Shown: in pieces, positions 30,001-33,000 of the stretch
Numbering within the stretch: position 1 is the first letter of the stretch
How the letters are laid out: every line of letters begins with the position of its first letter
Virus record (IMG/VR): IMGVR_UViG_2526164634_000028
DNA from: a virus
Taxonomy: Duplodnaviria > Heunggongvirae > Uroviricota > Caudoviricetes
DNA length: 41,531 nucleotides
Direction: 5' to 3' (one strand)
Made by a program: the position numbers

Positions 30001-33000
30001 CGCACAGGAGGCTTAATCACCCTCACTGGTCACTGCATGACATCCGGCGCACCTTTACAACCATGCTGAACGATTTAGGCGTTGATCCGCATGTCGTGGA
30101 GCAGCTTACAGGCCACCAGATGCCAGGAATGCAGCGAGTTTATAATCATTCCCGTTATCTGGATGCGAAACGCAATGCGCTGGATATGTGGACGGAGCGG
30201 TTAGGGATACTGGCGGGAACACATGAAAACGTAACCACGCTACCAGTAGCCAGAAGAAAATAATTTTTTTCGTGTTTTTTCAGTATGCGCATACTGGATA
30301 TGCGAACAGATACAACGTGCAACAATGAGCAACAATGTGGAACAACTACGAACAAGAGGCGAAAAAGCGTACGGATTTATAAGTAGCTGATTTTTAATGT
30401 GTTACTGGTTTTTTATACACTAGCGAATCACTCTTTAAAGGGCGAGAAAAAAGGCATGGAACAATATTTTATGCCTTTGTATTAACATGAATTTAAAAGA
30501 TTTTATTCTTACTTTTTCATTTTCTGTAAATCATACATCCTCAGTATTTGCCATTCATCACTCTAGCGGGAACAATACGACACAATAAGACACCTGATGA
30601 CTCTTTAAGAAACGAAAGGGGGCAATAGTGTTAAGCACTGATCGGTTTATACGTGAAAAAGAATGCGAAAAACTAACCGGCCTTAGCCGTACGTGTCGCT
30701 ACCGCCTGGAAAAGGCCGGACAATTCCCATCACGTCGTAAACTTGGCGGTCGTTCCGTTGGCTGGTCTTTATCCGAGGTTCTGGCCTGGAAGGATAGCTG
30801 CAAGGCAGTTCATTAATCACGCTGGCGGCACACAGCCGCCACACATCAATCATCTGAACACAGAGCTATAACCATGAAGATTGAATATACGCCAGAACGT
30901 GGGCGGGGATTCGTTCGCCCTGGTGAGACTGGAAAACCACAAATTGGGGTTTTTCAGGCATAAAAAAAGCGGCCCCGAAATGGAGCCGCCTTTCTGAACA
31001 GATAACCCGCTGCGCCTTATGTGTATATGATCCCAAACATAAGCACGGGGATGATAGCCGCTATCAGGCTGGTGGGCAATGCTATCAGTCTGGTTCAGTT
31101 CGTTGCCATACCTGCAATGGGCGCGTTTCCCTGTACTCTTTAAGGAATTGCTCAAGGGCAAAAGCACATGGCGCGAATCTTTCTGATTCATGCTCTATCT
31201 TTCTGCGCCGTCTTTTCCGTGCCGGTGATAATGTTTTGGTCAATTCTTTATCGGTCATTGTGTTGTCCTGCATAGCAATGCGCCGTAATACCTCACACCA
31301 CGGCGCTGATAGTTTTTATCCTTTGGGTTCTATGCCGCGTTGCTGTAATTCTTTGCGGAGAACGCGTTTAATCCAAGTGGCTAAAGATGTGTCGCCATCG
31401 GCCTTAGCTGCTTCTTCTAGCTGCGCTCTGAAGTCTTCCGGTAATCGCATTTGGTATGGAGGCGAACGTTTTTCTAATGGTGTTGACATGGTAATTACCC
31501 TTTATTACTATACCTACATGGTAATTACCATTGTACTTGCCATTACACAAAAATCAACGCCCCGCAGTGCTGGGAACACATACGGGGCGTCTAACCAACA
31601 ACGTAAACTAGGAGCCGTTATGGTTGCCGTAAATCATATACCACACCTTGTACACACACAAACGGCCTTTGTGTGGCGTTTTCTGGCACTGAGTGCCGGA
31701 GAATCTCAAATCATCCACGTAACCGCCTGGACGGAACGCGAAGCGCGTAACCGTTGCCCGTCCGGTTGTGTTGCTGTATTTGCCGCCCGTATTCGTCAGG
31801 AGGTGCGCCATGATTAATCTGTCACTTACTGACCTTAACCGCATTCAGTTTCGTGAGAAATTCACAGGGCAGCTACTGGTCAATGTGGATAAAGGTCGCG
31901 TGGTGTGTAATTACCACTTACCAGATGAAGCAATTGTCGCCACAAGGGAATCATTACAGGAAATCACAAAACGTGCCGGAATGATTAACACGAATATTCA
32001 GGGGATGCTTTATGCACAATAAAACCACACCGGACGCAGCCGCCGAAGCCATCAAAACGCTGATGCACGCGCTGATTGATATTTCTGTTATCGCGGACAG
32101 GGCACATAAGCACGCCACCAGCGAAACAGAATATGCCGGTGCTTTCGTTCCTCACTCACTGGCTGTCATGCAATTTAGTGCTGATACGGCGCTGAATGAG
32201 GCCAAAGCTATCCTGATTGCTGATTGTGAAAATGGGGGGGGTTATGCGTGATGATCGTTTTAATTCCCTGAAACAGGAATTTTCCGGCGTTCCTGATGAT
32301 GCGGCTGATGCGCTTTCGTCAATGCCAGAACTTATTAGAGCGGCTTTTTTCTTACTTTCCACGAGAGAATATAAATCAACGGGGCTTGATGTACTGAATA
32401 TCGCCGCCGATTATGCGGAATATGTGGCAGAGGCGCGTTATAGAAGAAAATTTCCTGAGGATGTAAGCCATGCGTGATATTTACCACCAAACAATAGACC
32501 GCGCATTTCTTGCACTTTCTCACAGTGAAAACATGATGGAAATATTGCGCATATGGCTTGAAACACTTGGCGACAATGAACGCGACAAACAAAAATCAAG
32601 AATTGCCACGGCATTAATAACGCTTCTTGAGCCTGTAATAATGGAACTGCAAGAAATAGATCTATTGCACGACAGATATAAAGAACAGCACACCGGAGAA
32701 TAAAAATAATGAAACTTAAATATTCTGGCTTAACTGCCAGTGGCAACACTCACCCTAAATTTACGCGCGGTGATATTTACCGCGACCAGTACGGCGGCAC
32801 GGTAATGATTAAGGGCGTGGAAGAACGGCGCGTAACCTACCGCCGTGAAGGTTACGAATATGATTGCGTGATGCCTGTTTATCAGTTCCGGCGTGATTTT
32901 TCTCTGGTACAGACCGCGCCGCATAACGTGCCTACCAGCAACGCCAGGGCACGGGCAAACATCCAGAAGCTGAAAACCATGGTTAACGGATTCAGGGGCA

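Follow-up and report, generated by a model that had tools for sequence, protein, structure and literature searches.

The Locus and Its Genes

The stretch of DNA considered here (the window) comprises 41,531 nucleotides of the IMG/VR virus record IMGVR_UViG_2526164634_000028. The subject of this analysis is a small gene on its minus strand, which lies between alpA and the replication operon of an integrated phage satellite, together with two palindromes at the start of the gene and the two predicted promoters into which these palindromes are built. The main elements are as follows.

31316-31489, minus strand: putative repressor gene, 57 amino acids, ATG start, unannotated in RefSeq; protein MSTPLEKRSPPYQMRLPEDFRAQLEEAAKADGDTSLATWIKRVLRKELQQRGIEPKG
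31488-31501, no strand assigned: proximal operator O1 (putative), core GGTAATTACC at 31490-31499; covers the Shine-Dalgarno region and start of the repressor gene
31518-31531, no strand assigned: distal operator O2 (putative), the perfect 14-bp palindrome ATGGTAATTACCAT, core at 31520-31529; lies over the predicted +1 of both promoters
31483-31511, plus strand: predicted early promoter P_early, -35 TTGACA (31483-88), 17-bp spacer, -10 TACTAT (31506-11); sigma-70 score 10/12
31530-31557, minus strand: predicted repressor promoter P_RHH, -35 TTGATT (31557-52), 16-bp spacer, -10 TACAAT (31535-30); score 9/12

A search of 5.8 billion proteins returned 93 homologues of the 57-amino-acid protein with 64-98% identity, almost all of them 56-58 and most of them 57 amino acids long, from Enterobacterales, Pasteurellaceae, Aeromonas, Oceanimonas and Gilliamella (all Gammaproteobacteria), and 17 columns of the family alignment are invariant. 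A profile search run exhaustively over 1.84 billion cluster representatives yielded just 40 clusters, and the family is therefore small and tight. It is almost absent from deposited phage genomes (four records), and one of these four, a 15-kb "Pasteurella phage", is probably a satellite. One metagenome-assembled genome from the Enterobacterales (locus L005, about 4178-4363) has a second, diverged paralogue directly after the first, and several Photorhabdus loci (L035-L039) have two family members in a stretch of 8 kb.

In the identical sequence of Escherichia coli O55:H7 CB9615, the RefSeq/PGAP annotation does not call the 57-amino-acid open reading frame (ORF), and instead has a plus-strand "Icd-like" pseudogene across the locus. 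Codon periodicity could not tell the frame of the 57-amino-acid protein from the ORF on the opposite strand, because the frames have their third codon positions in common; frame openness and the quality of amino acid replacements were used in its place. An uninterrupted opposite frame is present in only 25 of 51 distinct homologous loci. Over 69 distinct aligned homologous segments, there are 4 stops in the frame of the protein and 54 in the opposite (shadow) frame, identity is 68% and 54%, respectively, and the mean BLOSUM62 value of replacements is -0.24 as against -1.06. Judged by these measures, the 57-amino-acid ORF and not its plus-strand shadow is the gene.

Assignment to the Ribbon-Helix-Helix Superfamily

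The protein is matched over residues 6-55 by PHROG 228 ("Arc-like repressor") with E=1.5e-6. A model of the 57-amino-acid monomer made by AlphaFold2 with the family alignment (pLDDT confidence 76.7) has an extended N-terminus followed by helices at residues 18-31 and 36-50, and its Foldseek matches are nearly all ribbon-helix-helix (RHH) proteins: AmrZ (30% identity), Arc, NikR, CopG, ParD and MazE9. In a profile search of the PDB, AmrZ was the one meaningful match (E=0.6), and designed helical-repeat proteins, which were the top matches, were dismissed as compositional artefacts. Two distant relatives (P0116 and P0120) pass the Pfam cut-off for HicB, which is an RHH family, and approach those for Arc and RHH_1, and a Pfam scan of the protein itself found no helix-turn-helix family, the family and fold signals being RHH. 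Residues 10-20 (PPYQMRLPEDF) can be aligned in register with residues 8-18 of Arc (PQFNLRWPREV), an alignment which would place Q/P11, Q13 and R15 at the positions with which Arc reads DNA.

On the combined PHROG, fold and transitive evidence, the protein is filed in the RHH superfamily, the curated threshold for Arc not being reached. No curated RHH-family model was matched above its cut-off in the Pfam, NCBIfam and PDB profile searches, and below the level of the superfamily the protein has no demonstrable place in a curated family.

Probable Palindromic Operators within Two Predicted, Interlocked Promoters

The 41.5-kb window has exactly two copies of the palindrome GGTAATTACC (31490-31499 and 31520-31529), where 0.01 matches are expected by chance; none of 100 dinucleotide shuffles gave two. 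The actual repeat is 14 nucleotides long (ACATGGTAATTACC, at 31486 and 31516), with 30 bp from start to start. The core of O1 abuts the ATG of the repressor gene and lies inside the spacer of P_early, the -35 element of which is the complement of codons 1-2 of that gene. P_early points into the early operon, with a predicted start at about 31518, and the core of O2 begins about 2 nucleotides past this start. The two palindromes bracket the -10 element. The predicted start of P_RHH, at about 31523, is within O2. Thus, the predicted starts of the two promoters cross by about 5 nucleotides, the promoters are interdigitated, and the footprints of RNA polymerase on them are therefore mutually exclusive.

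This arrangement was followed in about 45 distinct homologous loci of many genera, which were taken from GTDB species genomes. The palindrome pair lies at about -10 and -40/-41 from the start codon: O1 occupies -10 to -1 from the ATG in nearly all loci, O2 is kept at -40/-41, with a spacing of 30-31 bp for most lineages and of 27-35 bp for a few. With few exceptions, the proximal site is a perfect palindrome, and the distal site is, elsewhere, often slightly imperfect (e.g., GGTCATTACC or GGTCGTTACC), which suggests a graded affinity of the protein for the two. The early promoter of other loci has its -35 element TTGACA at +6 to +1 of the ATG, a 17-bp spacer, and its -10 element TAtnaT at -17 to -22; it scores 10-11/12 in most genera examined, and the arrangement is found from Oceanimonas to the Pasteurellaceae. 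The repressor -10 element (TAcAAT, TAAAAT or TATAAT) lies at -47 to -42 in these loci. In the reciprocal scan, which covered 2.9 million viral contigs of IMG/VR, 22 of the 23 contigs with paired palindromes have an RHH ORF abutting the proximal site. It is likely, from sequence and position, that the two palindromes are the operators of the 57-amino-acid protein. Two further operator-like sequences in the window were set aside as unconserved in other lineages: TGTAATTACC at 31906-31915 (one mismatch, inside the second early gene), which is probably due to chance, and GGTAATAACC at 17160, which is compatible with chance.

An earlier reading of this DNA (the sequence-only reading) had proposed that an Arc/CopG-like ORF, missed by the ORF track, is transcribed away from the early operon, with two identical palindromes 30 bp apart at its start. 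The ORF proves to be a real, conserved gene with 93 homologues and with an Arc-like RHH signature in PHROG 228 and in its fold matches, and the RefSeq/PGAP annotation does omit it. The name Arc/CopG-like is based on the PHROG, fold and transitive evidence, with the qualification that the Arc family of Pfam is matched only below threshold. The orientation away from the early operon is as described, but the promoters are interdigitated and not simply back-to-back, and the spacing of 30 bp, which is exact in the window, is in other lineages 30-31 bp, with a few at 27-35 bp.

Co-variation of the Protein and Its Putative Operators

The sequence of the operators changes jointly with that of the N-terminal arm and β-strand of the protein, giving three operator types plus a variant in the Pasteurellaceae.

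Arm/strand KRSP[QP][YF]QMRL: operator GGTAATTACC
Arm/strand KTDQYQ[IL]RL: operator TGTAATTACA at both sites
Arm/strand KRSPQFPMRL: operator GGTATATACC
Arm/strand NKSxQYQ[IL]RL (Pasteurellaceae): operator [AT]GTAATTACA

This co-variation supports the view that the protein binds specifically to these operators. Together with the palindromic form of the sites, it lends indirect support to a dimer whose paired β-strands would read a symmetric operator in the major groove. A locus of the second type in Erwinia (L075/L076, 7594-8171), which consists of the RHH gene, TGTAATTACA operators and a divergent gene of 63 amino acids, is flanked by ParE/RelB and HipBA loci, has no satellite genes in its vicinity, and looks like a stranded remnant of the module.

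The same site in E. coli CFT073 is occupied by an island whose genes are in the same order; by gene order and position, it is taken to be the published phage-inducible chromosomal island (PICI) EcCICFT073. The corresponding slot (8474-8764 of the CFT073 locus L078, between alpA with a small gene termed orfX on one side and the Icd-like gene on the other) is filled by a PGAP-annotated RHH-like protein of 59 amino acids (C_RS30120) belonging to the YlcI/YnfO family, which has 24% identity to the protein in the window, a similarity that is not significant (E=0.26). The palindromes are replaced by two direct, non-palindromic 13-mers (GTGGGCCACACCT), 23 bp apart, one in the spacer and one at +1 of an early promoter, TTGACG-18-TATAGT, which scores 10/12. 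The orfX gene downstream and the hairpin module upstream are the same as in the window. A different protein with different repeats, found in the same slot with the same geometry, suggests that the repressor, together with its sites, acts as an exchangeable specificity cassette, in agreement with the published description of the gene downstream of alpA as a variable region of unknown function (10.1101/2025.02.11.637232). A hairpin (GCGCCGT-13 nt-ACGGCGC, 31279-31306) between the stop of the repressor gene and the start of orfX coincides with the left boundary of the segment which differs between the window and CFT073.

A Candidate Antisense RNA

A second conserved element lies upstream, where the first gene of the early operon begins.

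About 31625 to 31547, minus strand: candidate cis-antisense RNA of about 78 nucleotides, conserved in more than 30 distinct loci
31633-31638, minus strand: putative -10 element (TATGAT) of the antisense RNA promoter, at a fixed distance from the early-gene start
31620-31817, plus strand: Icd-like protein, first early gene, 65 amino acids; NCBIfam NF033153, E=5e-18, above cut-off; PGAP-annotated

Read on the minus strand, the order of elements is TAnnnT, a stem-loop, GUGGUUAGA, a GC-rich hairpin and a U tract. The 5' stem-loop, which covers the complement of the Icd-like start codon, has a 7-nucleotide loop with an anti-Shine-Dalgarno sequence (CCUC/CUCC), and the 3' part consists of the GC-rich terminator hairpin (31590-31557) with a U tail. 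TAnnnT begins exactly 13 nucleotides before AGCCAT, the complement of the ATGGCT of the early gene, in 35 of the 46 distinct loci scored and, by inspection, likewise in about 10 mis-anchored Xenorhabdus-type loci; this spacing is constant though the early proteins encoded differ between loci.

In an alignment of 32 sequences of the RNA, 94% of cells are paired and 12 of the 18 pairs have compensatory changes, a level of pairing which none of 500 shuffles reaches and to which slid controls, with about 40% pairing, may be compared. The 5' stem-loop was aligned by MAFFT too poorly for RNAalifold, and for this stem the evidence comes from single-sequence folds, which give a 5' stem-loop in essentially all 32 sequences; the changes visible in it run from CGUUA/UAACG to CAUUA/UAAUG to UCUUA/UAAGA. 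A search of Rfam gave no hit at E up to 1 over 28500-40000 and just noise at E up to 10 over 31440-31720, and identification of the hairpin RNA as P4 CI, C4 or isrK was rejected, since there is no match in Rfam even at lax thresholds. The region of the candidate RNA has no DNA match in the phage collection.

Two other readings of the conserved hairpin are a structured leader at the 5' end of the early mRNA and a terminator which insulates the repressor promoter. The stems are self-complementary on both strands, and the predicted -35 element of the RNA promoter is weak. However, G·U pairs number 84 and A·C pairs 6 in the alignment, and pairing has therefore been maintained on the minus strand only; the window sequence folds with -33.9 kcal/mol on the minus strand (z=-3.6) as against -24.2 kcal/mol on the plus strand (z=-1.4); the U tail is present on the minus strand only; and TAnnnT is held at its fixed upstream distance in nearly all loci despite the different proteins. 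A leader or insulating terminator is thus unlikely, and we predict a cis-antisense RNA of about 78 nucleotides, the presumed target of which, the ribosome-binding site of the Icd-like gene, would be masked by it.

Neighbouring Genes and the Host Island

Downstream of the repressor gene there are three further features.

31085-31273, minus strand: orfX, very basic protein of 57-62 amino acids (RKRRRRK); PHROG 21027 (unknown function), E=3e-16
30960-30992, minus strand: terminator-like hairpin GCGGCUCC-AUUUC-GGGGCCGC followed by U7; read from the sequence, missed by a simple terminator scan
30628-30816, plus strand: alpA, known PICI activator, convergent with the repressor operon; Pfam Phage_AlpA, E=5e-17

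The orfX gene is probably co-transcribed with the repressor gene upstream of it. It is annotated in CFT073 behind the different repressor allele of that island, and was not found with the RHH gene outside E. coli islands. The hairpin (30992-30960) is the only clear terminator between alpA and the repressor operon; it is oriented to the minus strand and weak in the plus orientation, and neither a simple scan nor inspection of the sequence showed a strong plus-strand terminator downstream of alpA. A convergent alpA-like gene is found downstream of the RHH gene in at least 20 loci. The alpA gene auto-activates, is needed for induction of PICIs and, when over-expressed, is sufficient for it (PMC6092414; 10.1101/2025.02.11.637232).

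The 1.1 kb around the locus is 100% identical to the chromosomes of E. coli O55:H7, O145:H28 and related strains. In O55:H7 CB9615, the island lies between roxA and phoQ, and the genes annotated in it by PGAP encode an integrase, an AlpA-type helix-turn-helix regulator, the Icd-like protein, a DUF4222 protein, a RepA helicase, a single-stranded DNA-binding protein (SSB), PerC, a major capsid protein, a head decoration protein and a small terminase (TerS); among the island proteins in the window, Pfam matches AlpA and AAA_25. From this gene set (integrase, AlpA, replication genes with RepA and SSB, and its own capsid, decoration protein and TerS), together with a length of about 15 kb and a PICI attachment site, the host island is a capsid-forming PICI (cf-PICI) of the EcCIEDL933 type, EcCIEDL933 being the prototype described by Alqurainy et al. 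(10.1101/2022.09.08.507074). The gene order of integrase, alpA, convergent RHH gene and early operon is common to the window and to Klebsiella and Pasteurella satellites. Among 5426 complete E. coli genomes, the whole module of the type in the window is present in 320 and its hairpin part in 1182.

Relative to CB9615, the window has three 1-base deletions, at ~29649 (A6 to A5), ~30263 (T8 to T7) and ~30940 (A4 to A3), the first of which frameshifts the island integrase. All three are within homopolymer runs, and they are likely to be assembly errors or slippage and not decay. Positions 1-20300 of the window are the late region of a lambdoid prophage (terminase, portal, tail and a tail-fibre-like ORF of 1137 amino acids), which is separated from the island by chromosomal genes, the right end of these in CB9615 being potABCD, pepT and roxA.

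Proposed Mechanism and Its Alternatives

The gene, its fold class, the geometry of the operators, their conservation and co-variation with the protein, and the structure of the RNA are all read from sequence, and from these parts we infer binding, repression, autoregulation, expression of the RNA and read-through from alpA. Dimers of the RHH protein would bind O1, which fills the 17-bp spacer of P_early, and O2, which covers its start, and occupancy of both would shut off the operon which comprises the Icd-like gene and then the RepA-type helicase, SSB and packaging genes. As O2 also lies over the start of the weaker P_RHH, the protein would negatively regulate its own synthesis, and RNA polymerase could occupy only one of the two overlapping promoters at a time. 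The antisense RNA of ~78 nucleotides, made constitutively, would start opposite the start codon of the Icd-like gene, block translation of leaky early transcripts, and terminate just upstream of the repressor promoter. Induction would follow when AlpA-driven read-through crosses the convergent repressor operon in antisense and enters the early operon. This last step, the most speculative, is proposed because alpA auto-activates, is convergent with the repressor operon and is followed by no strong plus-strand terminator. A dimeric RHH repressor acting at the two palindromes, with an antisense RNA as a second layer and induction through read-through from alpA, is given a probability of about three in four.

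The following points weigh against this reading. The Arc model of Pfam (PF03869) gives the protein 14.3 bits against a cut-off of 20.4 (E=0.038), and the YlcI/YnfO model of NCBIfam gives 18.7 bits against 30. AlphaFold2 was run on the monomer, in which the β-strand is not formed, since this requires the partner subunit, and every Foldseek E-value is 0.5 or above, the domain being tiny. As the sequences compared are related and hence not independent, fewer evolutionary events underlie the co-variation than its counts suggest. The promoter of the antisense RNA has a good -10 element and a weak -35 element. Over-expression of alpA alone induces these islands (PMC6092414; 10.1101/2025.02.11.637232), and the RHH protein is therefore not an absolute block.

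The same induction by alpA alone might be taken to mean that the protein, while binding the palindromes, serves chiefly for immunity against related satellites or for modulation after induction, in the manner of Cro, and the allelic nature of the repressor-operator cassettes of islands which share a site, comparable to the immunity types of phages, would agree with this. Such roles are, however, compatible with self-repression, and from operators placed on the early promoter of the resident island, repression in cis is to be expected anyway; as the chief function of the protein, they are rather improbable.

It is far less probable that the protein serves as antitoxin in a type II toxin-antitoxin pair, with palindromes that autoregulate this pair and not the island. 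Some databases label homologues as "HicB family antitoxin", distant relatives pass the HicB cut-off of Pfam, the Erwinia gene lies among toxin-antitoxin loci, and in the window the small gene orfX follows the RHH gene. Across genera, however, no conserved toxin gene is adjacent, orfX being confined to E. coli islands and the downstream genes differing by genus, and the toxin-antitoxin reading was rejected on this ground. Moreover, a protein of 57 amino acids is too short to include a toxin-binding tail, the operators are located, in a geometry that has been conserved, on a near-consensus promoter which faces the other way, into the replication operon, and the toxin-antitoxin loci of Erwinia have antitoxins of their own.

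That the real gene is the plus-strand ORF 31236-31817 (193 amino acids, with an Icd-like C-terminus) or the PGAP pseudogene (plus strand, about 30874-31467), and the 57-amino-acid ORF their shadow, is barely credible: coinciding third codon positions leave periodicity silent on the matter and PHROG 29966 (188 amino acids) matches the C-terminus of the 193-amino-acid ORF, but the stops, conservation and replacements described above all favour the RHH frame, its protein has a fold and family signal of its own, and the longer ORF would have to cross a terminator hairpin as well as both promoters and both palindromes. The PGAP pseudogene and PHROG 29966 are thus probably artefacts of shadow ORFs which hide the real gene. 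PHROG 4106, which matches a 78-amino-acid ORF on the minus strand (31608-31844, antisense to the Icd-like gene) with E=1e-50, may likewise be a database entry for such a shadow.

The preferred reading remains repression of the early operon by the RHH protein, backed by the RNA. Where the sequence-only reading saw the genetic switch of the island in the gene and its palindromes, the position of the latter in the spacer of P_early and at the predicted +1 of both promoters supports this, but the picture was incomplete, in that it lacked the conserved candidate RNA and the alpA gene convergent with the repressor operon. With a wider scope, the RHH-operator cassette and antisense RNA may perhaps be the "off" system of Gram-negative PICIs and cf-PICIs in general, present in interchangeable specificity types like those of phage immunity, with AlpA inducing through read-through which silences the repressor operon and not through direct activation of P_early. 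We put this forward tentatively, as a possibility which is open to considerable doubt.

Significance for Phage-Inducible Islands

PICIs disseminate genes for virulence and defence, and cf-PICIs pass from one species to another. Induction of the Gram-positive islands turns on a master repressor. For Gram-negative PICIs, the founding paper describes it as "unclear" whether a global repressor exists, and states that the difference between the Gram-positive and Gram-negative islands "is a mystery" (PMC6092414). In the literature searched, AlpA is the only regulator described, the papers on cf-PICIs do not mention a repressor, and there is no description of a module of RHH protein, operators and antisense RNA. 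An RHH repressor with its operators is an ordinary kind of regulator, here in a context where it addresses an open question: the cassette may be the "off switch" of Gram-negative phage-parasitic islands. A conserved and mostly unannotated repressor, its operators and a candidate RNA provide concrete parts for the question of the Gram-negative repressor, and specificity cassettes would explain the variable region downstream of alpA.

Comparison with Known Systems

Within Gram-negative PICIs, the CFT073 island is one of the close comparisons: its YlcI/YnfO gene has the same slot as the RHH gene, with one repeat in the spacer of a 10/12 promoter and one at its +1 and with the same RNA module and orfX, and differs in that the proteins are not significantly similar and in that the repeats are direct 13-mers 23 bp apart and not palindromes. 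An RNA regulator just upstream of an icd-type gene, in the immunity region of a satellite or phage, is also found in P4 (CI RNA) and P1 (c4-icd-ant), and some Gram-negative PICIs are reported to carry C4/isrK-type RNAs (PMC10111431). Unlike P4 CI, C4 and isrK, the candidate in the window would be a cis-antisense RNA from the opposite strand, not processed from a sense leader.

In the Gram-positive PICIs, Stl (Rpr) is larger than the 57-amino-acid RHH protein, not known to be related to it, and relieved by helper-phage proteins. The islands of the type in the window differ further in that AlpA is their established activator and no anti-repressor is known for them. The likeness is one of position: the 57-amino-acid gene is small and regulatory, lies on the integrase side and faces away from the excision and replication operon, as does stl (with the divergent str) in Staphylococcus aureus pathogenicity islands and other Gram-positive PICIs (PMC6092414).

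The pMV158 plasmid offers a replication operon under similar dual control. CopG, which is an RHH protein, and the antisense RNA II control repB, and copG is co-transcribed with repB. The window likewise has a replication operon under a putative RHH repressor, with a candidate countertranscript over the translation initiation region, but its repressor gene is divergent and not co-transcribed, the setting is an integrated satellite and not a plasmid, and no sequence relationship was detected.

In the immI region of phage P22, the small RHH repressors Arc and Mnt act at symmetric operators within overlapping, opposed promoters (Pant and Pmnt), and the short sar antisense RNA covers the ribosome-binding site of the controlled gene. 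All three features, i.e., an RHH protein, symmetric (here putative) operators in overlapping promoters, and an antisense RNA over a ribosome-binding site (here a candidate), recur in the window, and the presumed β-strand of its protein is in register with that of Arc. In sequence, the protein is not significantly similar to either Arc or Mnt; a single repressor goes with two palindromes of 10-14 bp about 30 bp apart, whereas P22 has a single operator of 17-21 bp bound by a tetramer; and the genes controlled would be the Icd-like gene and replication operon of a satellite, as opposed to an antirepressor. In overall design, the locus is closest to P22 immI and pMV158, and in position to Stl/Rpr in the Gram-positive PICIs.

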